Virus record (IMG/VR): IMGVR_UViG_3300045912_000939
Location: 1 to 61,369 of that record
Strand: one strand, 5' to 3'
Source of the DNA: a virus
Taxonomy: Duplodnaviria > Caudoviricetes
Length of the DNA stretch: 61,369 nucleotides
This document shows positions 26,973 through 44,791 of this stretch, in pieces; position 1 is the first letter of the stretch, and each line of letters begins with the position of its first letter. Under the pieces are notes generated by a model. The model saw only the letters and a program-made list of their open reading frames with translations, was not told the origin of the DNA and did not search any database. Position numbers and translations under genes: made by a program.

Positions 26973-26980
26973 GATGCCTC

Positions 26981-27701: not shown

Positions 27702-27708
27702 GGCTGCT

Positions 27709-28716: not shown

Positions 28717-28722
28717 GCTCGA

Positions 28723-28745
28723 AGCATGAGCCTATGTTGGGGTCA
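28723..28745 (-). promoter_or_regulatory. Late-promoter motif
   Basis: TGACCC-N11-CATGCT-N6-ATG. Confidence 0.8.
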
Positions 28746-28753
28746 GTTTTTAT

Positions 28754-29082: not shown

Positions 29083-29152
29083 TGAGGTCGCTGTCGTCAC
29101 CGCGTTCGACGCGCCCGAGTCGGACGTGCGCCGTTACCGGAAGGGCACATGA
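29083..29152 (+). pseudogene. 3' remnant of BrnT-like toxin
   Basis: VAVVTAFDAPESDVRRYRKGT* directly before antitoxin. Confidence 0.45.
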
Positions 29153-29153
29153 C

Positions 29154-29363
29154 ATGGCCGATGCAACTAAAGCCAAGCGCAAGGTCATTACTCATCCCGA
29201 TCAGCTCCCCGACTTCTCCAAGCTGACCTGGGAGGAGGAAGACGAGTTTTGGCGCACCCACGATTTTGCCGAGGGCGTCTTTGAAGAAGGCCCTGAGGTC
29301 GATGCCGAACTGGATGGGCTCTTGGGCATCGACCGGTCGAAAGACGGAACAAGGACGAAGTAG
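29154..29363 (+). CDS. BrnA/CopG-type antitoxin-like protein
   Basis: LPDFSKLTWEEEDEFWRTHD motif. Confidence 0.7.
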   Translation: MADATKAKRKVITHPDQLPDFSKLTWEEEDEFWRTHDFAEGVFEEGPEVDAELDGLLGIDRSKDGTRTK

Positions 29364-29395
29364 CTCCGCCACGAGGCCGGAGCGATGAGGCAGCC

Positions 29396-29418
29396 TGACC
29401 CCCGCTAGGCTCGAGCCT
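29396..29418 (+). promoter_or_regulatory. Late-promoter motif
   Basis: TGACCC-N11-GAGCCT-N5-ATG. Confidence 0.8.
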
Positions 29419-29423
29419 GGGGC

Positions 29424-32400
29424 ATGCCCGACAATGATGTGCGCATCAATATCCGAAGCAGCTTTTCCAGCGAGGGTGCCGACGACGTCAAATCCGACGC
29501 GCGCGAGCTACGTGAAGAGTTCGAGCATCTGGCCGATTCCATCGGAGACGCGGACGCCATGTTGCGCGAGCGCTACGCCAGTGCCGTCGAAGACGCCGCG
29601 CGGCAAACGAGTCGTGCGGCCGAGGTCATGGCGCAAGTCGGTCCCTTTAGCGGCATACTCTTTGCGGATGTCGCACGGCAGGCCATACAGGCGGGCGACC
29701 TCGACGCCGCCATCTCGGCGATCATGCAGGGGTACAAGACCGACGAGCCGCGAGCCATCCTGCAGCGCCTACAACAAGAAGTGTTGGAGGCGCGTCGCGC
29801 TACGGCAGACGTCGACCCTAAGGCGCCGGAGCCCGAGCTTGGCGATCCTCGTTCGCCCCGCATCGCCGAGCAGCTGCGCCGCCGCGTCGAAGACGCCATT
29901 CCGACGGTCGAGGCCAATCTCGTGCTCGGCCGAGCAGGAGGGGCCGAACGCAGTCTCGGGCTGGCCGAGCAGTATCTCGAGCAGCTCAGGCAGCTCGAGG
30001 GCAACACCGCCGAGCTAAAAGCACTGGGTGGCATCCTCGGTAAGCATCGCGAGAGCTTGGAGGACCTGAAGACCAAGCAGCCTCTCCCGCTGCCCGATCC
30101 CGCACAACCGCCGAGCCCGGTGGACATGGAAGGCTTTGCCGACACGCTGGTCAAGATGATGCGAGACCGGGGTTTGGGTGGAGCGGGCTCGATAGGGGGG
30201 ATGGTCGGGCGGCTTGGGCGTTTCCTTGGCCCATGGGGGATGGCGCTGACCGGCGTGACGGTAGCTGCGGGAGCGGCACATTCACTACTCGGTCGCATAG
30301 CGAGCGGCGCGCGCGAGGCACGCGAAGAAGCGCTGGCATTCCACGAGCTTGCACGTGAGTTCGGTGCCGACGAGAGCATCTTGCAACACTTCCTCAATAT
30401 CGAAAACGCCACCGGCTTCAACGTCTTCCGTACCAGTCCCGAGCTGCAGGCGCTGCGTTACACGACGACGGAAGCGGGACGCTTCGCTGCGCAGTACGGC
30501 GTCATGGCGCCCAACGTCGGAGCGGCCTTCTACCGCCCCACCCGACGAGAGGTCGATGCGTTGGCCCAAACGCTGCTCGAGCCGGGTGGAGATATCGAGG
30601 AGGCACGGCGCCTTGCCGAAGCGCAGTTGCGCAACAATCCGCCCGAAAGCGGCTCTGGCCGCTACGCCAGTCCTTACGCCCGCGAGTACGGGCTGTACCT
30701 CGATACCGTTGCCGGTTTGGGCCTCGCTCGAGCCACCGGCATCGACGAGTCGCAGATTGCCGCGCTCATGCGCAACGCGGCTCTAGTCGGCACGTTCGAG
30801 CCCGGCTTTGCCGAGCAGTTGGCCAGGGTGCTCTTTCAGGCCGTCCGGGACGGGACGGCCGAAGGCGTCAGCGCAAGCGAAACGCTCGTTTCCATGAAGT
30901 CGTACTTCGAGCGGCTGGCAGCAAGCGGCATCCGCGGTGATATCGAGGGCAGCGCGACCATTGCAATGTTGCAGCAAGTGCTGAACGAGTCGGCCAACCG
31001 AACCCTGCGGGGCGAAAGCGGGGCCCGGGCCCTCACAGGCATGATCACCGGCATGACGGAACTGGGCGACCCAGGGCTCGAGCTCTTCATGCAACGCGCG
31101 TTTGCCGGCCTCACTGCGGAAGACGTGGGCCTGAGCGGCGAAGAGGCGGTATGGTTCGAGCAACTTAGCCCGGTCGTGCGCGGCCGCATTATCGCCGAGC
31201 GTGCCCAGGCGGGCAACTATCGAGCGCTGGAGGCGCTGGGCGCGCAGTACAGCGGCGCGTTTGGGGAAAACCAGAATCTACAGGTCGAGTTCGCCCAGCA
31301 GTATCTTGGCCTGTCTCGCACACAAGCGTTGAGCCTTCTAGCGGAGCACGGCGGCGACCTCTTTCGCGTCTTCACCTCGGGCGAGGATGTCTACCGGCAA
31401 TCGTTGCAGCGCTACGAGGCGGCGCAGATTAGCGATGAGGGGATCGGGGGCGAGGGGGCGCTCAGGCGCATGGCTATCGACGCGGAGCAGCGAGCGTTTA
31501 TCGATGCCGAACGGGAGCGCGTTGGGTCGTATGTCTTCGCGCTACAAAACTTCGATGTCGCGATTACCGAAACCACGCTAAGACTCAACGAGTTTTGGAG
31601 GAACCTCGCGGGAATTGTTGCCGGGTTGCGCCAAGATCCACTGTTGGGTCGTTACATCGGACTGGGGCTCGAGCAGCTTCACCAAGACGAGCTTCAGCGG
31701 GGTGTGTCGAGCGGCCTAATCGATCAGGGCGCGTACGACAACGCCTATCAGGCCTATCGCGATCTCGGCATGAGCCACGAAGAAGCTCGCTCCGTGGCGC
31801 TGCGGACCGTCAGGCAGTCGTCTCCTCGGGGTGGGCAGGAGCCTGAACAGGAAAGGCCGGAGCTTCAGCTTGAGCTCGGCCGACTCAACAGAAGAGAGCC
31901 CCTGACGCGAGAAGAGCTTGTATTAGAGATGTACGAGGCGGCCGTGCGGTTGCGCGAGGCGGGTTACCCGATCAACCCCGCGGTTTTGACGGCACAGGTC
32001 GTTTTAGAAAGTGGCTATTTAGACTCGGAGCTGGCATGGCGCTACAACAACCCGGCTGGCGCCAAAGCTGGACGCGGCTGGACGGGTGAGACGGTCAACC
32101 TTGAGACTACCGAAAACACACCGACTGGCGAGGAGTACCGCGTGCGCGCGGACTTTCGGGTTTATGGCAGTTTCGAGGAAGCGCTGCTTGATTATGAGCG
32201 AGTCATGCAACTGCCGTGGTATGCGGAATCGGTAGCCAATCCCGATGATATCGAGCGCTACATCCAGGGACTCATGCCCATTTACGACGCTGCGGGGCGC
32301 CAAATTAAGCCTGGTTACGCAACCGACGTCAATTACGATAGAAAACTCGACAACATCATCCGCCGGCATGGACTCGACGAGCGGGAGCTCGAGCGTCTTC

Positions 32401-33017
32401 AGCGTGCACACGAACTTCCCGAACGGACGGCATCCGGCTACGAACCCCCAGCCTACACACCGCCCGAGTCCGCTTCCGAATCGGCCGGTGCCTGGATAGA
32501 GGTGGGCGGTAACCGCTTCTACCAATTCAGCGAGGCGGAACTAGACGAATTGATGCAGCGTTATCTCGCTCAGGGCATGGATGAAAGGCGTGCTCGCGAC
32601 ATGGCGACTCGCCTGTTGGAAACGCTTGGCCCGCAGGCGCTCGAAGGGTATCGGAGAGGCGGCTTTACCGGTTGGGGTGGGCGCGATGAGGTGGCTGGGC
32701 TGGTACATCGTGGCGAGTTCGTCGTCAATGCCGAATCGACCGAACGTTACCAAGGCTTGCTCGAGCGCCTCAACGCCGGCGACGACCATGGCGTGCTATT
32801 GAGCGCGCTACGTGATGCGCCAACTTCGCCCGAATCCTCGAGGGGCGGGGAATCCTCGATTCACGTCCACCTCACGCTCGGTGGGGAGGCTCGACTCGTA
32901 GGCGGCAACCTCGACGAGGCCGGGCGAGCGCTGGCGGATTACCTGACCCCGGCGCTCGAGCGGTGGGGGCGCGAACGCTTCAGCCCGTGGAACGCCGGTC
33001 ACCGTAGGGGCGAGTGA
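29424..33017 (+). CDS. Tape measure protein with GH73/FlgJ-type muramidase domain
   Basis: 1197 aa helical; AQVVLESG, NNPAGAKA, FRVYGS, GYATDVNY; GGFTG..AGLVHRGEFVV. Confidence 0.85.
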   Translation: MPDNDVRINIRSSFSSEGADDVKSDARELREEFEHLADSIGDADAMLRERYASAVEDAARQTSRAAEVMAQVGPFSGILFADVARQAIQAGDLDAAISAIMQGYKTDEPRAILQRLQQEVLEARRATADVDPKAPEPELGDPRSPRIAEQLRRRVEDAIPTVEANLVLGRAGGAERSLGLAEQYLEQLRQLEGNTAELKALGGILGKHRESLEDLKTKQPLPLPDPAQPPSPVDMEGFADTLVKMMRDRGLGGAGSIGGMVGRLGRFLGPWGMALTGVTVAAGAAHSLLGRIASGAREAREEALAFHELAREFGADESILQHFLNIENATGFNVFRTSPELQALRYTTTEAGRFAAQYGVMAPNVGAAFYRPTRREVDALAQTLLEPGGDIEEARRLAEAQLRNNPPESGSGRYASPYAREYGLYLDTVAGLGLARATGIDESQIAALMRNAALVGTFEPGFAEQLARVLFQAVRDGTAEGVSASETLVSMKSYFERLAASGIRGDIEGSATIAMLQQVLNESANRTLRGESGARALTGMITGMTELGDPGLELFMQRAFAGLTAEDVGLSGEEAVWFEQLSPVVRGRIIAERAQAGNYRALEALGAQYSGAFGENQNLQVEFAQQYLGLSRTQALSLLAEHGGDLFRVFTSGEDVYRQSLQRYEAAQISDEGIGGEGALRRMAIDAEQRAFIDAERERVGSYVFALQNFDVAITETTLRLNEFWRNLAGIVAGLRQDPLLGRYIGLGLEQLHQDELQRGVSSGLIDQGAYDNAYQAYRDLGMSHEEARSVALRTVRQSSPRGGQEPEQERPELQLELGRLNRREPLTREELVLEMYEAAVRLREAGYPINPAVLTAQVVLESGYLDSELAWRYNNPAGAKAGRGWTGETVNLETTENTPTGEEYRVRADFRVYGSFEEALLDYERVMQLPWYAESVANPDDIERYIQGLMPIYDAAGRQIKPGYATDVNYDRKLDNIIRRHGLDERELERLQRAHELPERTASGYEPPAYTPPESASESAGAWIEVGGNRFYQFSEAELDELMQRYLAQGMDERRARDMATRLLETLGPQALEGYRRGGFTGWGGRDEVAGLVHRGEFVVNAESTERYQGLLERLNAGDDHGVLLSALRDAPTSPESSRGGESSIHVHLTLGGEARLVGGNLDEAGRALADYLTPALERWGRERFSPWNAGHRRGE

Positions 33018-33484
33018 AGCGCAGTAAGCACGACGAAACAGGTGATCTGGGCCGTCTGCGGTCCTTCGAAGTAGAGGCGGTGGCTGGCGAACGGCTGAAC
33101 GAGCAGTAATCGCCGCCCCTCGCTTCCGCGCAGCAGCCACAGTTCGCCCGCCATCGACGACAGCCCTCTCAGCACGATGATGTCGCGTTCGCCCTCGAAG
33201 CGCGCTTCGGTGTATCCCTGATCTCGCAGTGCCTGGAGCGCGCTCAGTTGCCAATTCACGCCTTCCATGTCGAGCGGCGGGTGTTCCACGCAGACCGTTT
33301 CGGGCTGTATGCGATAGTACGGATCGGCGAACCCCACGCGGTACAGTTCGTTGACGATGGCAGCCTCGACCAGCCAAAGGCCCCCCTCGGAGAATTGCAC
33401 CCTCGTGCCCGAGGGATGATCCGGAATATCGATAGCTAGCGCTAGCGCGTATACGCTCCACACCAAGACAGCAACCCACTTCAT
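32999..33484 (-). CDS. Exported hypothetical protein (moron)
   Basis: Signal peptide MKWVAVLVWSVYALALA; TGnTATGCT promoter and AGGAG RBS. Confidence 0.65.
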   Translation of the reverse strand: MKWVAVLVWSVYALALAIDIPDHPSGTRVQFSEGGLWLVEAAIVNELYRVGFADPYYRIQPETVCVEHPPLDMEGVNWQLSALQALRDQGYTEARFEGERDIIVLRGLSSMAGELWLLRGSEGRRLLLVQPFASHRLYFEGPQTAQITCFVVLTALHSPLR

Positions 33485-33514
33485 GGCTTCTCCTGCGCTC
33501 AGCATACCAAGAAC

Positions 33515-33537
33515 TGACCCCCGATGGGATGGAAGGT
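33515..33537 (+). promoter_or_regulatory. Late-promoter motif
   Basis: TGACCC-N11-GAAGGT-N6-ATG. Confidence 0.75.
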
Positions 33538-33543
33538 TCAAGC

Positions 33544-35013
33544 ATGCGCGCCACCGAAAGCGATATCGCGGTCAAGCTGCATCTGCAGTCGGGACAGGTA
33601 CTCGACCTGAGCCACCTGGTGGTCGAGTACGCGGACCGCTCGAGCTTAAATGCCTTCCCCTCCTTTGGGCTGACCGTGCCAGCCGTTTACCCCGAGCCCG
33701 GCCCGTTTGAGGGGAAGCCCTTTGCTGAATTCGTGCGGCTCGGCGATATTCTCGAAGTCGGGCTGATCTCCACGGATGGTAGTCACGGCCCTTATGGGCT
33801 TGGCGGGTATCGGACCGCCATGGTCGGCATGGTGCAGCAGCTGAGCCTGAGACAGGCGCTGTCCGGCGACGATCTCATCAACGTCTGCGTCATCGGCGGC
33901 TCGAGCCTCTCCGGCGTGATGCTCAACGAGTCCGTAAGCTACTTTTTGGCGTACGGCGCGGCGCACGGCGTCTTCCGGGCGCGAGGATTGGTGCCGCTTG
34001 AAGACCTCAACAACGTGCGTCTGGACGCGGCGCTCTTGGCCTTTACCCGTGGTGTGGCCTACAGCATGCTGCGCATCGAACGCCCTCAAGGGAAGCTCGA
34101 GGATCTTCTGGGTGCAGCGTTCAAAACGCTTGACGGCGAAGGCGTCTTCGATACCGCCTGGGGACGGTACGAAGGCTCGTTCTGGGGGTTTTTGCAGAGC
34201 TACGCCGACCAACCACTGCACGAGGTGTATGCCACGCATTGGCCTCTGGCGCGAGTTCGCGAGTTTGCTGGGTTCACCCACCTGCCAAGAGTCTCCTGGG
34301 GGGAAGACCGCGTGGTGCCGGTGCTCGTCATTCGCCCTGCCCCATTCCCGTACTCCGAGGATGGCGGCCCCGCGAGGCTCGACGACTGGCGGGCGTTGCC
34401 CGTGCACGACCTTACAGCCGCGGACTGGGAGGGCTCGGAAGAGCGCTCCACGGAGCTGAGCGCGAGCGAGGTCGCCAATTTCTTCTATGTCTACCCCCGC
34501 ACGTTTAACTTCGACGAGGTGTTTAATCTCACGTACGCGCCGGTAATCATTAATGACGACTCGTGGAAGCGGCACGGCTATCGGCCGCTCAGCTTCGCCT
34601 CGTGGCTGTGGGGAAGAGGCGCCGCCAAGGAGGGCGCCGAGAACTATTTCCAGCGCCTTAACTGGCGCCTGGCCTCGCAGCACAATCGAAGAGACGAGTT
34701 TTTCGGCGGTCAACTAACCATGCGGCTGGCCCCCCATATTCGCGTAGGCGAGCGGATCAAGCTGCGGCACCGTGTCGGCGACGACACCACGGTCGCCTTG
34801 GCGTACGTTTCAGGCGTCTCCCACCGCTTTTCCGTCCGCGGCCCGAGATTGACCACGCTGAGCATCGAGCGCGGGCTTGCCGAGCGCTTTTACGAGGATG
34901 GCGCGTGGTTCGTGAAAGGGCTTATCCAGCACAACCCCATTCGAGACGAGGCGTTGCCGGTAGCCGTTGTGCGGCGCAACGACATACCGGGCGCACATCG
35001 CCTGGAGGAGTAA
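33544..35013 (+). CDS. Baseplate hub protein
   Basis: After TMP; GQLTMRLAPHIRVGERI, YVSGVSHRF..TTLSIERG. Confidence 0.75.
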   Translation: MRATESDIAVKLHLQSGQVLDLSHLVVEYADRSSLNAFPSFGLTVPAVYPEPGPFEGKPFAEFVRLGDILEVGLISTDGSHGPYGLGGYRTAMVGMVQQLSLRQALSGDDLINVCVIGGSSLSGVMLNESVSYFLAYGAAHGVFRARGLVPLEDLNNVRLDAALLAFTRGVAYSMLRIERPQGKLEDLLGAAFKTLDGEGVFDTAWGRYEGSFWGFLQSYADQPLHEVYATHWPLARVREFAGFTHLPRVSWGEDRVVPVLVIRPAPFPYSEDGGPARLDDWRALPVHDLTAADWEGSEERSTELSASEVANFFYVYPRTFNFDEVFNLTYAPVIINDDSWKRHGYRPLSFASWLWGRGAAKEGAENYFQRLNWRLASQHNRRDEFFGGQLTMRLAPHIRVGERIKLRHRVGDDTTVALAYVSGVSHRFSVRGPRLTTLSIERGLAERFYEDGAWFVKGLIQHNPIRDEALPVAVVRRNDIPGAHRLEE

Positions 35014-36164
35014 TGTTTACTGGCTTACATGAAGCACAGGTCGTGTCACCTCGAGTCGATGGCCGCCTCGAGGTGCTGCTCAACGACTACACATTAATGG
35101 GTGGCACGCTGACGGTAAGGGTGCTGCGCCCCTACGCGCACCCTAGCGCAGGCCATTATCAATTGCCTAGCGTCGGCATGTGGGGCTTGGTCGCGTTTAC
35201 CCGCAACGATGCCCGAAGCGGCGTCTGGCTCGGCAGCCTCGACGACGATCTGCGCAACCTCATCCCCGAGGAGCTGTGGGAAAGCGACCGCTACGCCGAA
35301 CTCAGCCACCACCCCTCCGACACCTACCTCATTCAGCACGGCGACGGCACCACCGAGAAGCTGTGGCCGGATGGCTCGCTCCTCAAACTCACCACCGGCA
35401 AGGACGGCAGCGTCTCCAACGAGACGAAGCGCAAGAGCAGGACGCCGCGCAAGATGCGCCGCAAGACCGGCCCCATGACGAGCGAGCGCCAGGCGTACGT
35501 ACCTCACAGCGAGCCGCCCGTCGACGTGGAGTTCGAGCATTCGAGCGGCGCAGTGGTGCGCATTACCGCCGACGGGTCGTTTCTGCTGCGCACGCCGCGG
35601 GGGCATCTCTGGCGGATGCACGACGCAACCGAGAAGGCGCGAGATCCTGAAAGCGGCGAGGCGACCGCCACGCCCGAGGAGGACGCCGGCCGGGTAGCCA
35701 GCCAGGTAGCGGTGGAGAGCGAAACAGGGCACCAGCTCATCTTCATGGATGACCCACAATCGGCGGCCAACGACCGCTATGTGAAGCTCGAAACTGCCGC
35801 CGGGCACGTGCTCGAGCTGCGCGACCTCGCCCCGGACGATCAGCACGTGAAGCTCGAGACGGCCGCGGGCGTCAAGGCGGAGCTGCGCGATACCCCCATC
35901 GTCAAGGCCACCATCGAAACGCCCGGCGGCCGCAGCTTCGTCATGGACGACGACGCGGCGCAGACCGTCGTCACCGATCCCACAGTGATCAATACCGTGT
36001 CGCCGGTGGCTAACGTCATGGCGGACGAAGTGAATCTCGCCGGTGGCGGACCTGGCGTAGCCCGCCTCGGCGACCAGGTCACCATCGTCATTCCCAGCGG
36101 CTCGAGCGCTGGAACCTACATCGGATACGTCACCAGCTCGAGCGACCGCACGTTTAGCGGGTGA
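35013..36164 (+). CDS. Baseplate spike (gpV/gp5-like)
   Basis: LPSVGMWGLVAF OB-fold, beta-repeats LETAAGH, VARLGDQV..GYVTSSS tip. Confidence 0.8.
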   Translation: MFTGLHEAQVVSPRVDGRLEVLLNDYTLMGGTLTVRVLRPYAHPSAGHYQLPSVGMWGLVAFTRNDARSGVWLGSLDDDLRNLIPEELWESDRYAELSHHPSDTYLIQHGDGTTEKLWPDGSLLKLTTGKDGSVSNETKRKSRTPRKMRRKTGPMTSERQAYVPHSEPPVDVEFEHSSGAVVRITADGSFLLRTPRGHLWRMHDATEKARDPESGEATATPEEDAGRVASQVAVESETGHQLIFMDDPQSAANDRYVKLETAAGHVLELRDLAPDDQHVKLETAAGVKAELRDTPIVKATIETPGGRSFVMDDDAAQTVVTDPTVINTVSPVANVMADEVNLAGGGPGVARLGDQVTIVIPSGSSAGTYIGYVTSSSDRTFSG

Positions 36165-36167
36165 GTC

Positions 36168-36605
36168 ATGGCCTGTCCCGAGTGCATGGAACCGATCGTG
36201 GCGAGCATGCCCCAAGCCGAGCGGGATGCGCTCGAGGCCAAGGCGAACGCGGCTATGGCGGCGCTGAATGACAAAGTGGCTGCCATCGACCAGGCGCTCG
36301 CTGGGCTCGAGCTGGCGCGAAGCACGCTCGTCGCCAAGCGGAACCTCGCTCAAACGCTCGTGGACGATGCGAATGGCCTTCTTGCCGATCCCTTTTTCGG
36401 CCATGGCAACTGCCCGCCTATCGACGCACTGGCTGACGCACTGGGCGACGTTCACCATGAGGCCAGCCAAGAGCTTACCCAGGCCCTGGGGAGCCTCGAC
36501 AAACTCGACGACGCCATTGCCGAGGCGACGGCGAAGAAGAATGCGCTCCTCGCGACGCATAGCCAGTTGGCGACGTTGTTGAGCTGCTTGCAAGGGGCGC
36601 CATGA
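36168..36605 (+). CDS. Coiled-coil hypothetical protein
   Basis: Ala/Leu heptads, CxxC N-terminus. Confidence 0.6.
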   Translation: MACPECMEPIVASMPQAERDALEAKANAAMAALNDKVAAIDQALAGLELARSTLVAKRNLAQTLVDDANGLLADPFFGHGNCPPIDALADALGDVHHEASQELTQALGSLDKLDDAIAEATAKKNALLATHSQLATLLSCLQGAP

Positions 36606-36765
36606 GCCCCAAACCTGAAGCAAGGGGCTTCAGGCTCCTGGCAGCCTGGCCGCTCCGTACCGGGCTGTCGGGAGTCCAGGCCCAACCCGGTAGATTCCTG
36701 TCATTCTAGCTCGAAGAGTAGCTCGAGCCGTACACATTGCCTTTGGCAGCTACGTGGTTGGCTTC

Positions 36766-37170
36766 TTACTGCTTGGGAAACAGTTCGTCCAGTCTCGTGC
36801 AGTCCTCGAAGTCGCGCCACACGCCGACAACCTTACCGATGACACGAGCCACCTGCTCGGGCAAGATCACCGCATCGTGGGCGCTGTCGCCCTGTAGGTT
36901 GCGAGCAACGTAATACCGACCGGTGCTCGTGTCTACAATCTCGCGCACGACGGCATAGCCGGTCTCCTTAAGCTCGAGCACGACCGCGTCGCCGGCTTGC
37001 CCTTGCTGCGAGCGATCCACGAATGTGTAGTCGCCTTCGCGTAAAGGTTGCGCTCCGCCGTCCATACCTTCGCCGAGCAACCTGACGAGGACGAGATCGC
37101 GATCCCGGACGATTCCTGCAGGGAGGGGAATCGCTACGCCTCTCTCGCTCCATCGCTGGGGCTTCTTCAT
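36766..37170 (-). CDS. Stand-alone S24/LexA C-terminal domain lacking catalytic Ser/Lys
   Basis: VRLLGEGM, LREGDYTFVD, AVVRE, VIGKVVGVWR; TATTCT-N6-ATG. Confidence 0.75.
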   Translation of the reverse strand: MKKPQRWSERGVAIPLPAGIVRDRDLVLVRLLGEGMDGGAQPLREGDYTFVDRSQQGQAGDAVVLELKETGYAVVREIVDTSTGRYYVARNLQGDSAHDAVILPEQVARVIGKVVGVWRDFEDCTRLDELFPKQ

Positions 37171-37232
37171 GGCCTTAGAATACCTAAAATAATAAGGCTT
37201 AGGAAGGGGCCTTGAGCGACAGTCGCGTTGCC

Positions 37233-37255
37233 TGACCCCAATCGTGCGTCACCTT
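37233..37255 (+). promoter_or_regulatory. Late-promoter motif
   Basis: TGACCC-N11-CACCTT-N6-ATG. Confidence 0.75.
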
Positions 37256-37261
37256 ACCCGC

Positions 37262-37855
37262 ATGGCCAAGGTGTATCTGCGCTTGCTCGAGCCCACCGGT
37301 GCGCTCGTCCCCTGTCCGGTGTCGTTCATCGGCTCGAGCGGCGTCTGGGCGTTCCCCCTCGGCCTGCAGTCTTATGGCGAGGAGCGGCTCGCGCGCGTGC
37401 AGGTGCTGCATATCCCCGACGGTGTGGCGGCCGACAGCCTGGGCATCTCGCCGCCGGTGTTTCAGCTCGAGGCGACCTTCGGCAGTAAGCCGAAAATGGT
37501 CCGCGGCCGCACCATGAGCGCGCAGGAGGTCACCAACGACCTGATCGCGTTCGTGCAGTTCTACTTCAGCGAGCGCCGCCAGCGCGTGCGCGAGCGTAAC
37601 GATCTGATCGAGATGGCGCTCGATGACTTCGTGCACGCCCGCCACTGGATCGTACAGCCCGATGGGGCGCCGAAGGTGCGGCACGCTGCGCGCGAGCCCG
37701 TGCGCACGTATTGGTCGATGACGCTGCAAGGTTTGCGGCGCTGGCAGTCGACCACCACCCCGCTCGATGCGCTGGCCAGCGCGCTCGTCCCCGGCACCAG
37801 CGCGCAGATCGGCAGAGAGTGGGACCGCTTCGACGCCTTCGCGGGTGAAACATGA
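37262..37855 (+). CDS. Probable tube-initiator/baseplate protein
   Basis: Leaderless late start; position in baseplate cluster. Confidence 0.55.
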   Translation: MAKVYLRLLEPTGALVPCPVSFIGSSGVWAFPLGLQSYGEERLARVQVLHIPDGVAADSLGISPPVFQLEATFGSKPKMVRGRTMSAQEVTNDLIAFVQFYFSERRQRVRERNDLIEMALDDFVHARHWIVQPDGAPKVRHAAREPVRTYWSMTLQGLRRWQSTTTPLDALASALVPGTSAQIGREWDRFDAFAGET

Positions 37856-38712
37856 CGCTGCCGGCGTTGCGCGCCCGCCTGGCCGCAGGCGAGGCGAGCG
37901 TCACCGATCTCCGGCGCGCGCTCGAAGCGGCGAACGCTCGCGATGGGCTCGAGCTCGTGACGCAAGGCGCCGCTTCGCTATCGCGCGTGCGCGAGCGGCT
38001 GGAGGCCTTCTTGGGCGAGTACGAGCTGGCGCTGTCCGCGTCGATTCGAGCGCAGTTGCAGGCGTTGCAGGTTCTCATGGGCGAGGTGGGCACGCGCCTG
38101 GCAGCGCTGCTCGAGCCGGACGGCAGTCTGCCACCATCCCTGAGCGCAGCGAATGGGACGGTCGACGTGATCGGCTTGCTCGACGAGGCGACGGCCTACA
38201 CCTTTACCGAGCTGGTGGACCCCGGCGATTTGGACGTGATTCGGCTCGACACCAAGCTCGAGCTGAACGTCGACGTCGATCACTTGCGTCAGCTGCTAAT
38301 TCGCGCGGGCACCGCGTCCTTTCGCGTGACGCTCGAGGCCGAGGGTACGGAGCCCGAAGAGCAAGAGGCCTTCGAGGCGTGGCTCGAGGAGGTGGACGGT
38401 AGCCTCACCATCACCGCTGCGCCGGCGAGCGGCGCCCCCATCGACCTGGAAGGATACGACGCCGTGGTCGCGCTGGCGGCGTCGCTGGCGGATTACGGCT
38501 TGCTGGTGGGCCCCATAAGGCGCACCGCCGTCCTCACGAATGCGCTCCTGGCCGAAACGGGCACGCTCGCGCAGTGGGGCACGCGCGTGGCGGCCCCGGT
38601 GGCGCTCTCGGTCGTTCAGGGCTACGCCCGCGCCGATGCGCCTCGCCATCATCGCAGTACCCAAGCGCGCCTGGCGCTCGGTTGGGCCGTGCAGGCGCTG
38701 CGGGAGGTGTAG
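37852..38712 (+). CDS. Hypothetical baseplate-region protein
   Basis: ATGA coupling. Confidence 0.6.
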   Translation: MTLPALRARLAAGEASVTDLRRALEAANARDGLELVTQGAASLSRVRERLEAFLGEYELALSASIRAQLQALQVLMGEVGTRLAALLEPDGSLPPSLSAANGTVDVIGLLDEATAYTFTELVDPGDLDVIRLDTKLELNVDVDHLRQLLIRAGTASFRVTLEAEGTEPEEQEAFEAWLEEVDGSLTITAAPASGAPIDLEGYDAVVALAASLADYGLLVGPIRRTAVLTNALLAETGTLAQWGTRVAAPVALSVVQGYARADAPRHHRSTQARLALGWAVQALREV

Positions 38713-39339
38713 ATGCCGCGCTACGCCGTCTATGAAGTCAAGCAGTTCGACGACATCCGCCGCCTGGCTCAGCACCTACTCGGTGACTTGCATCGCTGGC
38801 GCGAGCTTGTCACTCTGAACCGGCTCGAGTATCCGTACATCGTCAGCGACCCGGCGCAGCACCTCGGCAAGCGGGTGCTGCGCCCTGGCGACCGCATGCT
38901 CTACCCGGGCCGGCCGGTTCGGCAGCTCACGCCCGCTTCGGCGCAGAACGCCGAGGCCGATGCGTACGGGCGCGACTTGCGCTTGACTCGCGACGGCCAC
39001 CTGGTGCCCATCGGCGGCAGCCTAGCGCTCGTCACCGGCCTCGAGAACCTCGAGCATGCCCTCCATCGCCGCATCAACACGCACCTGGGCGGCTTGCCGG
39101 CGCACCCGCGCACCTACGGGCACCTCGCCAAACAGTACGTGGGCAGCGTCGGCGAGCCCGAGTCGCTCGCGCTGATCGCGCTCGAGTTCGAGCGTTGCCT
39201 CCGCCGCGACTCGCGCGTGGCCAGCGTCGAAGTGTCAGGCGAACACGACGGCGCCAAGATCGCCACCACCCGCAGCCGCGTGACGCCGCACCCGCCGGGT
39301 CAAGAGCTCGTGCTTGAGGAGAGCCTGGTCGTTAACTGA
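38713..39339 (+). CDS. LysM-like + gp25/gpW baseplate wedge protein
   Basis: DDIRRLAQHLLGD..WRELVTLNRL; GLENLEHAL..HPRTYG..DSRVASV. Confidence 0.8.
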   Translation: MPRYAVYEVKQFDDIRRLAQHLLGDLHRWRELVTLNRLEYPYIVSDPAQHLGKRVLRPGDRMLYPGRPVRQLTPASAQNAEADAYGRDLRLTRDGHLVPIGGSLALVTGLENLEHALHRRINTHLGGLPAHPRTYGHLAKQYVGSVGEPESLALIALEFERCLRRDSRVASVEVSGEHDGAKIATTRSRVTPHPPGQELVLEESLVVN

Positions 39340-39359
39340 CCCTGCCGGCGCGTCACGCT
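39337..39359 (+). promoter_or_regulatory. Late-promoter motif
   Basis: TGACCC-N11-CACGCT-N6-ATG. Confidence 0.8.
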
Positions 39360-39365
39360 CCAACT

Positions 39366-40439
39366 ATGATCCAGCGCCCCTACACCTACAAACCGCTCGA
39401 GGAGACCGTCTGGGAGATGCTGGCTTTGTGGTGGTCGCGGACGGGCATCAAGCCCGACGCCGAGCCCGGCAGCGTGCTGCGGACGCTCTGCGAGGCGGTC
39501 GGCTTCGAGGTCGAGGATCTGACCTTCCGTTTCGACAGTGGCCTGGAGACCGCCATCCCACTCGCGATCTTCGAGGCGTTCGGCTTCGAGCCGCTCGAAG
39601 CCACCAAAGCGACCGTCCCCGTGACCTTTACCCGTTCGGCAGCCTTTTCGAGCCCGCTCGAGATTCCTGCCGGCTTCAAGGTAGGGCGGGCCGACGGGGT
39701 GGATTACGAGGTGGTGCTCGGGGGCGAGATCCCCGCCGGCGAGAGCAGCGTGACCCTCGCGGCCTTGTGCACGGTGCCGGGCGCGATAGGCAACGCGCCG
39801 GCCAACACCGTGATCTTCCCTCGCGCGTCGCTACCGACGCTGGTCAGCGTCGCCAATCCGCAGCCTGCCGAGGGCGGCCAGGACGAAGAACCGCTGGACG
39901 ATCAGAAGGCCCGCTTCGCACGTTACATCGCCAGCGTGCACCGGGCGACCCGCGCGGCGCTCGAGGCAGCCGCGCTGGCAGTAACGACCGACGCCGGCGA
40001 GCGCGCGACCGAGGTGCTGGTCTTGGACGCGGTCTATAAGACGGGCCTTTCGCCGGGCTACGTCGAAGTGTGGGTGGACGACGGCTTCGCCACCGCCTCG
40101 CTGGCGCTGGTAGACGCCATCCAACAGGAGCTCGAGCGCTACCGGGCGGCAGGCGCGGTGCATGCCACCTACCCCGTCGAGCCCGTGCCGGTGGATGTCA
40201 GCTACCAGCTCGACGGCGACCCCGACGACCTCGACGCCTGCGACCAGGCGGCCAGGGATTACGTGCGCTCGCTGAGGATCGGACAGAAGGTCTCGCGCGA
40301 GAGCCTGATCACGGCGCTGACGAACGCCGCCGTCAACAGCTTTGAAGTGACGCTGCTCGAGCCCGCCGCCGACGTGATGGTCGGCCAGACGGAGCGCGCG
40401 GTGCTCGGAGCGCTCGGCGGGAGCATGATCGATGAGTGA
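39366..40439 (+). CDS. Baseplate J-like protein
   Basis: GSVLRTLCEA, PGAIGNAPAN, GGQDEE, YRAAG. Confidence 0.9.
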   Translation: MIQRPYTYKPLEETVWEMLALWWSRTGIKPDAEPGSVLRTLCEAVGFEVEDLTFRFDSGLETAIPLAIFEAFGFEPLEATKATVPVTFTRSAAFSSPLEIPAGFKVGRADGVDYEVVLGGEIPAGESSVTLAALCTVPGAIGNAPANTVIFPRASLPTLVSVANPQPAEGGQDEEPLDDQKARFARYIASVHRATRAALEAAALAVTTDAGERATEVLVLDAVYKTGLSPGYVEVWVDDGFATASLALVDAIQQELERYRAAGAVHATYPVEPVPVDVSYQLDGDPDDLDACDQAARDYVRSLRIGQKVSRESLITALTNAAVNSFEVTLLEPAADVMVGQTERAVLGALGGSMIDE

Positions 40440-41109
40440 GGAGCGCTTCCGGCTTCCCAAGTGGCTGAGGCGCGACGGCGTCAACGCGCCGTTTCTGGAG
40501 ATGCTTTGGCGCGCGCTCGCCTCGAGCGATCCCGACCTGGCGCTCGCCATGCTCTACCTCGCGAAAGCCGCCGGCAAGCACCTCGACGCGCACGGGCGAC
40601 TCTACGGGCTGCCGCGCCTGCTGGGGGAGAGCGACGACCTGTACCGGCAGCGGATCGTCGCGGAGCTGCTCAACCCCCGCTCGAAGGCCGAGGCTATCGT
40701 CGGCGCCATCGAAACCGCGCTGCCGGGCGTCACTGCCAGTGTCACCACGCCCTACGAGGAAGCGCTGGCCGAGGGCGCGCACTTCTTCGACGGCACCTGG
40801 CGCTTCGACGGCGGCGTCTTCTTCAAGGAGCCCTCGAACCCGGATGCGACGGCTCGAGCCGTCTTTTACGTGGACGTCTTCGGCCCGGACCCCGATCTCA
40901 CGCGAGCCAGGGCCGTCATCGAGCGGCTGCGCGCCGCCGGCTACATCCCGACCATCCGCTTCTCGTTCCAGTTCGACACGCTGCTCGAGCTTCCCCTCGA
41001 GGCGAGCGTGCAGCGGCGCGAGGTGTTCTATTTCGATGGGACGCGCACCTTCGACGGCAGCTGGTTCTTCGGGTTGAACGACGTCGGCCCGGAGGAAGCG
41101 CTCGACTGA
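40432..41109 (+). CDS. Baseplate I-like tail protein
   Basis: AAGKHLDAHGRLYGLPRLLGESDDLYRQRI; FDGTW repeats. Confidence 0.75.
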   Translation: MSEERFRLPKWLRRDGVNAPFLEMLWRALASSDPDLALAMLYLAKAAGKHLDAHGRLYGLPRLLGESDDLYRQRIVAELLNPRSKAEAIVGAIETALPGVTASVTTPYEEALAEGAHFFDGTWRFDGGVFFKEPSNPDATARAVFYVDVFGPDPDLTRARAVIERLRAAGYIPTIRFSFQFDTLLELPLEASVQRREVFYFDGTRTFDGSWFFGLNDVGPEEALD

Positions 41110-41129
41110 CCCCAGGCCGGGGGCAGCGT
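41107..41129 (+). promoter_or_regulatory. Late-promoter motif
   Basis: TGACCC-N11-CAGCGT-N5-ATG. Confidence 0.75.
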
Positions 41130-41134
41130 GAGGC

Positions 41135-41506
41135 ATGCCGCGCACCACCACCGACACCTTGAAGGCAGCGCTCGCGCAGCACCTGGCGGGGGAGAGCACC
41201 CCGGCGCTGGAAGTGGTCGAGGCGGCGTTCGGGACGGGCGGCGTGGACGCCTTCGGTAACTTGCGCAGTGCCGAGCCCACCCGCACCGCCCTGCGGAGCG
41301 AGGTGCACCGCAACGACAACGTGACCGTCACGCGCGACGGCACCATCGCGACGGCGCTGGTACGGATTAATGGCGACGAGGCTGGAACGGTGACAATCTC
41401 CGAGGCGGGAATCTTCGCGGCCGGAAACAAGCTGCTGGCGTATGCCACCTTCCCGCCGCGCGAGATCGGGCCGGGCACCCAGCTCGACTTCCGCTTCAGG
41501 ATATAG
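41135..41506 (+). CDS. Tail-collar/fibre attachment protein (DUF3751-like)
   Basis: AFGTGG, TALRSEV, ISEAGIF..LLAYATFP. Confidence 0.75.
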   Translation: MPRTTTDTLKAALAQHLAGESTPALEVVEAAFGTGGVDAFGNLRSAEPTRTALRSEVHRNDNVTVTRDGTIATALVRINGDEAGTVTISEAGIFAAGNKLLAYATFPPREIGPGTQLDFRFRI

Positions 41507-41515
41507 GAGACGGTT

Positions 41516-42088
41516 ATGGCGAACCTCGTAGGCAATCCGAGCGCAAGCTTTTTGGCGGAGCTTGCCGAGATCAACCCCGACGGCACCACCCCAGCCAGCC
41601 CTGCACAGATGAATAGCCGCCTGCAGCGGCTGTTGGACAACGACGCGCGCGTGAATTCGCGTTTCGAAGCAGGTGATTGGTTACCAGAGTTGTGGACGTA
41701 TAGCGGTGGCATTTCGAGCGACCCTGGGCAAGCCTACGTATTGCCGTCGCACACAGAACTCAAGTATGCCCGCGCTGGCCACCTTGTCACCGTTTCGGGA
41801 CAACTTGCCATTAGTGATGGCAATACTGGTAGCGGCTTGTTTGCATTCACATTGCCGTACCCTACTCTACAGAGGTATGCGATGGGTGTTGCTTTTAAGC
41901 ACGGGGGTTCTGCATCGCAGATCGTGGTCGCTATTGAGCTTGGGCTAGGCTTTGTTGGTTATCCAAATCATGTCGCTGCCTTGCGTCGGGAGGTCGAGAA
42001 TAGTTTCCATCTCAACTATGAACACTTCGGTGGTAGTCTAAGTATCTTCCGTATTGGCCTGACGTATCCCGCTAACGTCAACCTGTGA
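41516..42088 (+). CDS. Short tail fibre / receptor-binding protein
   Basis: NSRLQRLLDND then low-GC domain KYARAGHLVTVSG..FTLPY. Confidence 0.65.
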   Translation: MANLVGNPSASFLAELAEINPDGTTPASPAQMNSRLQRLLDNDARVNSRFEAGDWLPELWTYSGGISSDPGQAYVLPSHTELKYARAGHLVTVSGQLAISDGNTGSGLFAFTLPYPTLQRYAMGVAFKHGGSASQIVVAIELGLGFVGYPNHVAALRREVENSFHLNYEHFGGSLSIFRIGLTYPANVNL

Positions 42089-42100
42089 CGGGATAGCCCC

Positions 42101-42526
42101 ATGATTGCGGCTACCTTAATCCTGTTCGGGCTGGCGGCCTTGCTCGAGCGCCTCACGGGATCGCCGTTCGTCGCTAGCTTCGTCGGGCGCCTTCTCGCGC
42201 GCGCTTATCAAGGCAGGCTTGTGCCGTCGCTGATCGGCGGCCACTACGCGGTCTACGAAGTGCGCGCCGTGCCGAGCCTCGTTCCCGGCATGGCCGCGCA
42301 GACCTGGGGTGAGGTCGTCCTGGTCAGGCGGGGCGAGCACACCCTCCGCCTCGAAGCGCACGAGCGCGAGCACGTGCTGCAGTACCGGCGGTGGACAAGC
42401 TTGCTGTTTTGGTTGGCATACGTCGCGTGCTGGCTCTGGGGTCTCGTTCGCTACCGCGACGCGACGCGGGCGTACTGGCAGATCCCGTTCGAGGTGGCCG
42501 CGCGCCGCGCCGAAAAGCTCGCCTGA
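42101..42526 (+). CDS. Membrane HExxH protein, DUF4157-like metallopeptidase
   Basis: AQTWGEVVL..AHEREHVLQY..PFEVAAR. Confidence 0.7.
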   Translation: MIAATLILFGLAALLERLTGSPFVASFVGRLLARAYQGRLVPSLIGGHYAVYEVRAVPSLVPGMAAQTWGEVVLVRRGEHTLRLEAHEREHVLQYRRWTSLLFWLAYVACWLWGLVRYRDATRAYWQIPFEVAARRAEKLA

Positions 42527-42546
42527 CCCCCGCCAGGCTCGAGCGT
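42524..42546 (+). promoter_or_regulatory. Late-promoter motif (near copy of TMP promoter)
   Basis: TGACCCCCGCCAGGCTCGAGCGT-N5-ATG. Confidence 0.8.
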
Positions 42547-42551
42547 AGGGC

Positions 42552-43994
42552 ATGCCCGATAACGACGTCCGCATCAACGTCACGAGCACCTTCTCGAGCG
42601 AAGGCTCGGACAAGGTTCAGTCGGACGCGCTCGAGCTGCGCGCCAGCTACGGTTCCATCTGGGAGTTCTTTCAGCGCGCTACGCCCGAAGAGATACAGCG
42701 CATGTCGCATACGGCGCTGCGCGATGTCACGCCGGCGGGCGTGACGGGCGACCTCGCCACGGCGGGCTACCGGCAACAGTTGGAAGCGGAAGAGCTCGAG
42801 CGCATCAGGAGCCTCAACGCATCTTTCCAGGAACTCGATGTATCGGCGCAACAGTTCCGAAAGACGCTTCACAGCTTCGTCACCGATTGGCTATGGGAGC
42901 GCCGTTTCCGGGACGATCCTTATTGGGGGCCACGATTTCGGGAATGGCAAGAGGAGCAAGAACGGCAGGAGCAAGAGACGCTGCGAGATCGCCACTCGCA
43001 ACGGGAGCTTACGGCATCTGCAGCCGAGCTTGCGCGTTCCCCCGACGATGACGTTGCTCTCGTCCTACATGCAGCCAATGTCTTGAAGGCAAGGGAGTCG
43101 CGCGGGAACTACGCTGCCATCAACGAAGATGCTTATGGCCCAGACAATCCGGCGCTGGGCGCCTATCAGATTCTGGCATCGAATCTAGGAGGGCCTAGAG
43201 GTTGGGATACGAAGCATCTCGGGCATGAAATTACCCGAGAAGAGTTCTTGGCGAATCCGATGTTGCAGGATCAGATCGCTCGTGGCCAGCTCATGGAGTA
43301 CCTCGGAAGGATGCCGGAAGGGTTGAGCCTCGAAGAACGCGCACGTCGTCTCGCCGTGGCCTGGTATGCAGGACCGGGCAGGGGAGACGCAAACCTGTTG
43401 CGCGACACCAGTCAACTTAGCGATCGACCAGTCGTCTACACGTACGAAGATGGGACGTGGCACATCGAGGCTCAGGGGAGGCGCTACGATCCCAGCGAGC
43501 GGGAAATCGAACGCCTAGCGCGATACTTTGCCGCACTTGGAGTGGACGAGTCTCTTGCCTATGGTATGGCCCAAAATCGCCTCATCGACGGTGGCCCAGC
43601 GGTGTTGGACGAGTTGCCGACGGGCTACCGAAGCGGCGGCTTCACCGGCGACGGTGCGGAGGACGACGTCGCCGGCATCGTGCACCGCGGCGAGTTCGTG
43701 GTGCGCGCCGACGAGACCCGGCGGCACCGGGAGCTGCTCGAGCGCCTCAACGCCGGCGCGGATGAAGCAGCGCTATTGGCGGCGCTGGCCGCGTCTTCGC
43801 CAGCGCCAGCCGACAGCCCGCAGGCATCCGGCGCCACGAGCGTCGTGCGCTTCGAGGGCGAAGGCCTGCTGCGCATCGAGGTCGACGAGCGCGTGCCGGA
43901 AGGCGCGCGGCTCGAGCGCTACCTCGCCGAGGGCCTGCAGCGCTGGCAGGGTGAAGTCCGCTCGCGCTTCAACCAGGGCGCGCGCCGCGGCTGA
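42552..43994 (+). CDS. Short tape-measure paralogue with lysozyme/transglycosylase-like domain
   Basis: N- and C-termini align with 29424..33017; ARESRGNY, ALGAYQIL, FLANPMLQD, AWYAGPG. Confidence 0.8.
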   Translation: MPDNDVRINVTSTFSSEGSDKVQSDALELRASYGSIWEFFQRATPEEIQRMSHTALRDVTPAGVTGDLATAGYRQQLEAEELERIRSLNASFQELDVSAQQFRKTLHSFVTDWLWERRFRDDPYWGPRFREWQEEQERQEQETLRDRHSQRELTASAAELARSPDDDVALVLHAANVLKARESRGNYAAINEDAYGPDNPALGAYQILASNLGGPRGWDTKHLGHEITREEFLANPMLQDQIARGQLMEYLGRMPEGLSLEERARRLAVAWYAGPGRGDANLLRDTSQLSDRPVVYTYEDGTWHIEAQGRRYDPSEREIERLARYFAALGVDESLAYGMAQNRLIDGGPAVLDELPTGYRSGGFTGDGAEDDVAGIVHRGEFVVRADETRRHRELLERLNAGADEAALLAALAASSPAPADSPQASGATSVVRFEGEGLLRIEVDERVPEGARLERYLAEGLQRWQGEVRSRFNQGARRG

Positions 43995-44021
43995 CTGAAG
44001 ATGGGCCCGCCCTCGAGGGTC

Positions 44022-44044
44022 TGACCCTATCGGGTGGCCAGGAT
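44022..44044 (+). promoter_or_regulatory. Late-promoter motif
   Basis: TGACCC-N11-CAGGAT-N6-ATG. Confidence 0.75.
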
Positions 44045-44050
44045 GGCCGC

Positions 44051-44734
44051 ATGGACATCGTCTTCGTCCCGGCGCACCCCAACAACTACAGCCTGCAGCG
44101 CGTAACCCCGACGTTTCTCGTGTTGCACGGCACCGGCGGGACGTTCCGGGGCGATCAGACGTGGGCGCAGAACCCGCACGCCAGGGCCAGCTATCACTAC
44201 CTCGTCAGCAAGGGCGGCGAGGTCGTGCAGATGGTCGAGGACCGCTACATCGCCTTCCACGCGGGGGCGTCCGAGTGGTCGAAGGAAGCGGCGGAGCGGC
44301 GGGGCTTTCCGTTCAGCGAGCACTCGAGCTGGACTGACCTTAACCGGCACTCGATAGGGGTTGGCCTCGAGTCGCTCAACCGCCGGGACGAAGTGTATCC
44401 GGAAGCGCAACTCCAGGCGCTCGCCGAGCTGGTTCGCTCGCGCTACGGCCGCATCCCGCCTCACCGGATCTTGACACACGAGATGATCAGCGCGCCGCGC
44501 AAAGTCGATCCGGTCAATTTCCCGCTCGAGCAGTGGCTGCAGCTGTTGGCAGGCGAGCAGCTCGAGCCTGCCCCCGCTCCGTTCGCAGGGACAGGGGAGC
44601 CGCGCCGCTTGGGCCGGTACCGGACGCTGGTCGTTCACGGGCTGGCCGAGGGGCCGATTGTTGTCAGGCGGCCGTTTCTAGCCAGTGAGACGGGCGACAA
44701 GATCGACGTCGACTTTCGTGTGGAGGGCACGTAA
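44051..44734 (+). CDS. Endolysin, N-acetylmuramoyl-L-alanine amidase (Amidase_2)
   Basis: LVLHGT, ASYHYLV, AFHAG, HEMISAPRKVDP. Confidence 0.9.
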   Translation: MDIVFVPAHPNNYSLQRVTPTFLVLHGTGGTFRGDQTWAQNPHARASYHYLVSKGGEVVQMVEDRYIAFHAGASEWSKEAAERRGFPFSEHSSWTDLNRHSIGVGLESLNRRDEVYPEAQLQALAELVRSRYGRIPPHRILTHEMISAPRKVDPVNFPLEQWLQLLAGEQLEPAPAPFAGTGEPRRLGRYRTLVVHGLAEGPIVVRRPFLASETGDKIDVDFRVEGT

Positions 44735-44791
44735 CGGAGGTGATCCAGTCGAGTATCTAGGCCAACGCTTGCCCAGATGAAAGGGGTTGCC

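Follow-up and report, generated by a model that had tools for sequence, protein, structure and literature searches.

A natural ruler-less tape measure derivative in a phiMa-like prophage that also encodes a full-length tape measure protein

The window analysed here is a complete provirus record of IMG/VR (IMGVR_UViG_3300045912_000939; 61,369 nt; CheckV completeness 76 %), in which two genes of the tape measure protein (TMP) type are found on the plus strand. The first encodes a full-length TMP of 1197 amino acids (aa), here called TMP1. The second encodes a protein of 480 aa, referred to below as the short protein, which keeps the conserved blocks of the TMP family at both ends and lacks the ruler. 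Both reading frames, with the N-termini quoted for them, are present where a preliminary description of this DNA had placed them (Table 1). From sequence comparison, the occurrence of two TMP-type genes is judged to be real and beyond chance, and the short gene to be a natural mini tape measure located between tail-fibre genes and a lysis cassette; the functional readings that may be given to it remain proposals.

Sixty-one open reading frames (ORFs) were chosen in the window by their G+C content at third codon positions (GC3). In tblastn comparisons, 29 of these matched phiMa, which a preprint describes as a temperate Thermus myovirus (bioRxiv 10.1101/2024.08.14.607894), at 28-73 % identity; the search covered 49,999 of the 51,843 nt of phiMa. 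By its gene content the window appears to be a phiMa-like myovirus prophage of hot-spring origin. The segment from 41516 to 46693, which includes the short gene, is without phiMa counterpart. Logan contigs of the probable source run contain positions 36637-46213 in one piece with 0 differences, which is not independent of the record, and a 228-nt contig from another study (depth 2) spans 43793-44020 with three differences. Many apparent joints in the sequencing-run contigs had sides of less than 30 nt at 80 % likeness and were taken as noise. No RNA run was listed when sequencing runs were looked up for the window sequence.

Table 1 Features of the window, with the two TMP-type genes and their leaders first
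Feature	Position	Strand	Basis or remark
TMP1, 1197 aa	29424-33017	+	Homologue of phiMa gene 43, upstream of hub, spike and baseplate genes
GH73 domain of TMP1	31959-32372	+	Pfam match
C-terminal TMP module of TMP1	32487-33011	+	
Short ruler-less TMP derivative, 480 aa	42552-43994	+	Homology to full-length TMPs
Lytic-transglycosylase-like domain, aa ~143-307 of the short protein	42978-43472	+	Predicted-structure matches and motifs
Leader copy 1, 31 nt	29393-29423	+	Directly before the TMP1 ATG
Leader copy 2, 31 nt	42521-42551	+	Directly before the short-gene ATG
Major head protein, sheath, tube, chaperone	13451-28716	-	phiMa matches
Homologue of phiMa tail assembly chaperone genes 45/44	13451-13840	-	phiMa comparison
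HNH endonuclease gene	28754-29188	-	At the right junction of the inversion
69-aa acidic ORF	29154-29363	+	At the right junction of the inversion
TMP, hub, spike, baseplate W/J, fibre-like genes	29424-42088	+	phiMa matches
Candidate baseplate hub, 494 aa	33529-35013	+	Homologue of phiMa gene 41, 44 % identity
Spike with Phage_base_V OB domain	34905-36164	+	Homologue of phiMa gene 40, 53 % identity
141-aa membrane protein, HExxH (HEREH)	42101-42526	+	phrog_15610 'protease', E 1.1e-9
Amidase_2 endolysin	44051-44734	+	Lysis cassette, directly downstream of the short gene
Holin-like protein with four transmembrane segments	44777-45217	+	Lysis cassette
Lipoprotein-like protein	45481-45906	+	Lysis cassette
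Two proteins with a single transmembrane segment	within 44051-46693	+	Lysis cassette
Large terminase	46852-49086	-	phiMa match

TMP1 matches phrog_24 (TMP; E 5.3e-9) and is 37 % identical to the product of phiMa gene 43 over aa 3-742. An N-terminal block (aa 1-33) is followed by the helical and hydrophobic ruler, a GH73 domain (aa 846-983) and the C-terminal module (aa 1022-1196). The GH73 domain that had been proposed for the long copy was found in Pfam (Glucosaminidase, PF01832; E 3.8e-21), its score of 76.5 bits lying above the cut-off of 30.2; FlgJ-type NCBIfam matches were also obtained, with scores under their cut-offs. The gene occupies the position of a TMP gene on its downstream side, where the homologues of phiMa genes 41 and 40 come after it. 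The chaperone genes expected immediately upstream are not there: their homologue is located on the opposite strand, 15.6 kb apart, owing to an inversion. Relative to phiMa, the block from the gene 59 homologue to the chaperone, comprising head, connector, sheath, tube and chaperone genes, has been inverted in place (13451-29423), with the right breakpoint ~30-250 nt upstream of the TMP1 start. The missing upstream chaperone can thus be put down to rearrangement, and the assignment of TMP1 as the TMP, made by homology and gene order, stands. The candidate hub and the spike would be the expected docking partners for a TMP C-terminus.

The short protein shares both termini with TMP1, as had been claimed. 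BLASTP aligned aa 1-33 of the two proteins (23/33 identical, 70 %; E 5e-11) and aa 1022-1196 of TMP1 with aa 301-480 of the short protein (83/187 identical, 44 %; E 5e-24). The N-terminal part of the short protein consists of a block at aa 1-30, a deletion junction at aa 26-30 (LELR), a block from the distal ruler (aa 28-130) and a long helix (64-162). Its C-terminal part, aa 301-480, contains the GYRxGGFTG..VHRGEFVV module and ends in ..NQGARRG; matches to the TMP families phrog_24, 3336, 1506 and 25241 fall at aa 336-427. While the conserved N- and C-terminal blocks of the family are present, the long helical ruler with its Gly-rich hydrophobic segment is not, and no hydrophobic segment was scored in the protein. 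Nor is the gene located between chaperone and hub genes: fibre-like genes and the 141-aa HExxH gene come before it, and the lysis cassette after it.

The preliminary description had seen a lysozyme-like domain in the short copy, and this is recovered in the AlphaFold2 model, of which residues 143-307 match lytic transglycosylases with Z scores of 9.3-9.6. The matches are with phiKZ gp144 (3bkh; Z 9.6, root-mean-square deviation 4.1, 137 residues aligned), Cj0843 (6cf8; Z 9.6) and MltE (3t36_A; Z 9.3). The mean predicted local distance difference test value (pLDDT) of the model is 74.5, residues ~150-280 are above 90, and ~140 helical residues (19-162) lie ahead of the lytic domain. The motifs ES..GNY, GAYQI and AWYAGP are intact and conserved among the relatives of the protein, as is the pair E182-S183 of the putative catalytic motif; the ES and G-x-Y-Q motifs are what we take to be those of lytic transglycosylases. 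The short protein is therefore predicted to have a lytic-transglycosylase-like fold. It resembles the Family-1 lytic transglycosylases and phage lysins (MltE, Slt70, Cj0843, phiKZ gp144) in its predicted fold over ~120-147 residues (Z 8.4-9.6) and in these two motifs, but sequence identity to them is 12-20 %, a Pfam scan gave 0 families at E<=0.1 and no SLT match, there were 0 matches among PDB sequences at E<=1, and Foldseek with the whole model found no match at E<=0.001 (E 0.09). Neither a signal sequence nor a transmembrane segment was found in the protein.

The two genes had been taken for paralogues. In its simple form this does not hold, as the short gene comes from a different TMP lineage and is closest to a TMP of 1179 aa on the metagenomic contig L005. 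Residues 1-33 of the short protein align with residues 1-32 of the L005 TMP and residues 27-480 with 691-1179 (262/501 identical, 52 %; E 7e-152); residues 33-690 of this relative are without counterpart, in agreement with the earlier remark that the short copy lacks the ruler. In a three-way alignment, the short protein, TMP1 and the phiMa TMP are collinear, with the same order of N-terminal block, ruler gap, last ~100 ruler residues, lytic domain and C-terminus; over the last ~100 ruler residues, 35 of 99 positions are identical between the short protein and the phiMa TMP. A HMMER search of 1.84e9 representative proteins gave 1520 matches to the short protein at E<=0.001. Among the best 150 of these, which were inspected, the top ones are full-length TMPs of 943-1197 aa, and those of 943-953 aa carry the same lytic domain as the short protein. 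Segment by segment, the L005 TMP is nearer to the short protein than TMP1 is, except in the first 33 residues (20/32 identical to the L005 TMP and 23/33 to TMP1). In the lytic domain, 89 of 126 residues are identical to the L005 TMP and TMP1 has no true counterpart; in the last two C-terminal blocks the figures are 43/58 and 41/59 for the L005 TMP as compared to 37/55 and 22/59 for TMP1. As the L005 TMP is the nearer of the two, the short gene is not a recent local duplicate of TMP1. A co-adaptation of the termini of the short protein to TMP1 was considered and rejected, because the L005 TMP is nearer at the C-terminus. The alignments point instead to a TMP gene of a second lineage that has lost, in frame, ~660 residues of the ruler, the Gly-rich hydrophobic stretch among them.

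The DNA of the deletion junction (LELR) reads CTCGAGCTGC, a word that recurs at the internal site in the L005 TMP gene; the N-terminal site of TMP1 reads CGCGAGCTACG. Words containing CTCGAG are frequent repeats in this region. We infer a deletion between short same-frame repeats. The L005 TMP and TMP1 are 65-70 % identical over the first ~300 aa and 30-45 % beyond, M23, GH73 and lytic-transglycosylase domains are exchanged within the family, and the TMP genes in this Thermus-phage-like group are mosaic. Neither in the window nor in phiMa were there homologues of the L005 flanks or of the genes downstream of the TMP piece on a second metagenomic contig, L006.

The claim that the DNA upstream of the two genes is nearly identical holds for the 31 nt directly before the ATG (28/31), but not beyond, where identity falls to 37/48 and then to 47/100. 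Copy 1 of this leader contains a near-palindrome, AGGCTCGAGCCT, and has GGGG just ahead of the start codon. The 23-mer core occurs only at the two sites in the window, and two or more matches were obtained in 0 of 100 shuffles; its 22-mer or 23-mer form has no exact match in IMG/VR viral contigs. The leaders of L005 and L006 are unrelated to it (6-7/31). In the first 30 codons of TMP1 and the short gene, 13 of the 30 third positions are identical (proportion of synonymous differences, pS, 0.83). That the shared DNA is a promoter, as had been suggested, was not confirmed: there are 0 sigma-70-type sites in 28700-29500, and the sole site in 41400-44900 is on the minus strand (41790-41763). Folding of both leaders as RNA was no better than that of shuffles (z 0.71 and -0.14), and a repeat search detected no inverted repeat at the leaders. 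Copy 2 holds the TGA stop codon of the 141-aa gene. In copy 1 the TGA is kept although no ORF ends at it, and the sequence weakly resembles the final codons of the 141-aa gene. The TMP1 leader may thus have originated as a copy of such a junction, perhaps when the inversion removed the coupling of TMP1 to the chaperone genes. Because the same leader fronts the essential TMP1, which has to be translated for tails to be made, translation of the short gene should be able to start, provided that the gene is transcribed; it is part of the same plus-strand string of genes as the fibre and lysis genes.

A separate observation on these sites is that the 10-mer CTGACCCCCG is present in four exact plus-strand copies in the window (19833, 29395, 33514 and 42523), three of them just upstream of plus-strand gene starts. 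When up to one mismatch is allowed, the 10-mer is not enriched (7 found, 6.6 expected).

The retained parts of the short protein show no faster evolution than those of its full-length relative. Counts of unique changes in the short protein and the L005 TMP, made with five kinds of outgroup, were 19 vs 24, 22 vs 25, 11 vs 7, 5 vs 6, 6 vs 10, 11 vs 11, 13 vs 8, 11 vs 10 and 5 vs 10 (all p>0.3). By the Nei-Gojobori method, dN between the short gene and the L005 TMP gene is 0.36 and dS ~1.9 over 442 codons, which gives a dN/dS of ~0.2 with dS near saturation. The rate and dN/dS results fit continued selection and a recent deletion alike.

Tentatively, and with less than even confidence, we favour the reading that the short protein is expressed and acts as a TMP-type accessory lysin that docks at the hub. 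It would be translated from the same leader as the essential TMP1, and its C-terminal module would dock in the baseplate hub, alone or mixed with TMP1 chains. Upon infection it would be expelled and add a second glycan-cleaving specificity to wall penetration, so that a lytic transglycosylase would act besides the glucosaminidase of TMP1. The collinearity with full-length TMPs, the intact motifs of the lytic domain, the shared leader and the lack of rate acceleration speak for this reading. In addition, the protein keeps all of the family blocks outside the ruler, namely the N-terminal ~30 aa, the last ~100 ruler aa, the GG[FY]TG..VHxGE[FY]V module and the extreme C-terminus, and its gene lies inside an otherwise phiMa-syntenic, intact-looking tail and lysis block. 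A mixed trimer of C-termini, consisting of two chains of TMP1 (1017-1197) and one of the short protein (296-480), was predicted with a score of 0.38, while the best of three controls reached 0.05; contact agreement between the runs was at least 48 % and partner pLDDT at least 55. Of 80 solved complexes, 58 passed the score mark, as did 2 out of 110 mismatched pairs; at 0.60 or under, the passes came from only 7 of the 80 solved complexes and from both of these mismatches. The prediction may lend weak support to a mixed trimer, and as the chains are homologous the pass may show their likeness only. On the accessory-lysin reading, occupancy of the hub by the short protein might also shorten some tails.

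Several points weigh against such a role. Having both TMP ends but lacking the ruler, the short protein should compete with TMP1 for the hub, which would be costly. The 28/31 identity of the leaders could stem from a short, recent copy event, the relative-rate test is of low power and does not separate selection from a recent deletion, and dN/dS also sums over the period in which the two proteins were still full-length TMPs. Besides, the short form is a singleton, as a search by words among 5.8e9 proteins (264-840 aa) returned only the protein itself and two matches covering 19-20 % of it. Only a single TMP is present in the searched part of phiMa, and the pair of TMP1 and short gene was not found in the viral, genome or metagenome contigs searched, so that the preliminary proposal of looking for it in related prophages brought to light neither a second short form nor a second pair. 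Megablast of window positions 29000-44100 against 50,697 phage records gave no match, and neither the short protein nor TMP1 as a query retrieved related loci from viral contigs. With an alignment of four TMP sequences, nothing was found in genome or viral contigs and two loci, L005 and L006, in metagenome contigs. An alignment of the short protein and the L005 TMP matched 15 viral loci in the lytic domain only (33-42 %; proteins of 188 to 3552 aa) and nothing in genome contigs. Six short proteins with the GG[FY]TG motif were retrieved from the 150 HMMER matches listed; the motif is repeated in them, and they were rejected as short forms, being unrelated small TMPs or fragments without the lytic domain.

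Nearly as probable is that the short gene represents a recombination relic, a reading not considered in the preliminary description. It is placed close behind the accessory lysin because no second short form was found and because the junction is of the slippage type and lies in a region that is variable and rearranged. A second TMP gene would have been obtained by exchange with a related phage, then shortened by microhomology-mediated deletion and tolerated in the prophage without having a role. The location of the junction in the repeated word CTCGAGCTGC, with CTCGAG words frequent nearby, the mosaic TMP genes of the group, the absence of a phiMa counterpart to the segment that carries the gene and the inversion of the head-to-chaperone block all fit this history. 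A further example of such a TMP piece is found on contig L006 (1158 nt), which encodes a 99-aa N-terminal stub of a TMP (20-816 region). The stub is 76 % identical to residues 1-90 of TMP1, its residues 27-64 are identical to the L005 TMP, and its stop codon (TGA) overlaps the start codon (ATG) of a Phage_holin_4_1 holin gene. It may parallel the short gene, as a TMP piece beside lysis genes, or be a large deletion in a decaying prophage, and it indicates that TMP pieces next to lysis genes can arise by deletion. What speaks against a relic is that the 480-codon frame is intact with every family motif, that unique substitutions are not in excess and that the leader has been conserved or copied, its start-proximal part being identical to that of the essential gene. 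In phage genomes, moreover, 1.4 kb without any use would seldom persist for long; all these arguments would fail if the event was recent.

It had also been proposed that one locus might build tails of two lengths, and we consider this unlikely. In such a case the short protein, as a homotrimer at the hub, would seed some of the baseplates and stop tube growth early, which would result in short-tailed or tailocin-like particles. Both of the end blocks that a ruler needs are kept, the model has ~140 helical residues ahead of the lytic domain, and in-frame TMP deletions shorten tails in model phages. However, sheath, tube and terminator genes are not present in a second set, baseplates would be wasted if the short protein competed with TMP1, the short form is a singleton, and nothing alike was found in the literature searches. 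Equally improbable is a function outside the tail, either as a second muralytic enzyme released via the holin for the lysis cassette or as a prophage decoy that poisons the tail assembly of superinfecting relatives: the amidase, holin-like and lipoprotein genes do follow the gene directly and the predicted fold is that of the phiKZ endolysin gp144, but the protein has no signal sequence or transmembrane segment, TMP end blocks would be needless for lysis, and PADLOC found 0 families for the short protein and its neighbours (9/9 proteins).

The accessory-lysin reading may be compared with several known systems. Tail-length ruler experiments with lambda gpH reportedly made use of engineered in-frame deletions. 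The short gene is like these in the in-frame loss of ruler and the retention of both ends, and differs from them in that it is natural, that more than half of the protein is gone and that an intact TMP is encoded in the same genome. In having the blocks of the family at its two ends and a wall-cleaving domain ahead of the C-terminal module, the short protein is like TMPs with embedded wall hydrolases, such as the phiMa/Cumys TMP with an M23 peptidase and the 'tape-measure protein with lysozyme' of Thermus phage MN1. In contrast to these, the short copy lacks the ruler and the hydrophobic stretch, is not beside chaperone and hub genes and coexists with a full-length TMP. Wall hydrolase domains in TMPs are also described, in PMC3556154, for phiCbK gp95 (CHAP domain) and the TMP of mycobacteriophage TM4. 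Full-text literature searches turned up no phage described with both a full-length and a ruler-less TMP.

More generally, though we regard this as rather doubtful, the phage might load a dedicated enzyme cargo by means of tape measure end modules, so that such loading would not be limited to eCIS or T6SS machines. A ruler-less derivative would then be present at the hub or in the TMP trimer by way of its TMP C-terminus and an N-terminal tag, use the same leader as the ruler, be paired with a DUF4157-type protein and stand as an intermediate to Tme-like effectors, and two different wall-cutting activities would be delivered by one tail. The preliminary description had likewise proposed a tube-loaded effector with the TMP termini as loading signal; its interpretation finds partial support in the retained family blocks, the predicted lysozyme-like domain and the common leader. 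DUF4157 marks the cargo of contractile injection systems. Tme of Streptomyces davawensis is described in PMC11126660 as a TMP-related effector with a fused DUF4157 that is loaded in such a system, and offers a precedent for the accessory-lysin reading, as a DUF4157-like gene is found directly upstream of the short gene. As in the window, Tme combines a TMP-related protein and an enzymatic domain with a DUF4157-type domain and baseplate proteins. It differs in being the largest ORF of its cluster and in having transmembrane helices, a fused DUF4157 and a nuclease. In the window, the DUF4157-like part is encoded on its own, as a small membrane protein; a wall lysin is the predicted enzyme, and the phage has its own TMP. 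Loading of the AlgoCIS proteins Cgo1 and Cgo2 is stated in a preprint to need a system-specific, disordered N-terminal sequence, with DUF4157 being dispensable (bioRxiv 10.64898/2026.05.27.728243). There too, two proteins of one tail-like machine have a common disordered N-terminal segment, differing enzymatic parts and an optional DUF4157 nearby; its loading differs in needing an AAA+ protein, and the N-terminus shared in the window is the TMP N-terminus itself. No AAA+ ATPase turned up among the window ORFs that were scanned, the whole window not having been scanned for one.

If the short protein is made and packaged, TMP end modules would suffice for the placement of a protein inside a phage tail. 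This would amount to a rule, provided by nature, for the design of enzyme-loaded phage tails and tailocins, and to an evolutionary bridge to the TMP-related effectors of contractile injection systems. If it sets a second tail length, the phage would be the first natural two-ruler phage found in the literature searches. Even as a relic, the short gene would still document the recombinational exchange of lytic domains and halves among the TMP genes of thermophile phages.

The 141-aa protein encoded directly upstream of the short gene has no phiMa homologue, and a single, N-terminal hydrophobic segment was scored in it. In the ESM Atlas it is placed by features (0.93) with a cluster in which 14 % of the members carry PF13699 (eCIS_core/DUF4157) and by structure (TM score 0.67) with one in which 100 % do. 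No Pfam family, including PF13699, matched it at E<=1. On predicted features and structure, it thus resembles eCIS_core/DUF4157 proteins.

Some further observations were made on the genes around TMP1 and in the inverted block. An ORF of 155 aa (33020-33484, minus strand), antisense between TMP1 and the hub gene, begins like a signal peptide and has a good ribosome-binding site (AGGAGA). Opposite-strand genes, unrelated to one another, are found at the same spot in phiMa (gene 42) and on contig L005; by gene order, the site just after the TMP gene has the look of a place where accessory genes (morons) are often inserted. Tandem repeats of 66 nt, 71 % identical, occur in the spike gene (35770-35890, plus strand), as expected of a beta-helical needle. 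Amid the structural genes of the inverted block, a stretch of ~1.6 kb (18968-20627) has a lower G+C content (0.59) and no high-GC3 ORF. Finally, a 118-aa ORF (11688-12044, plus strand) shares 73 % identity with the C-terminal end of the phiMa gene 61 product (1571 aa), the top identity among the genes common to the window and phiMa, and is present in the window as a separate small ORF.

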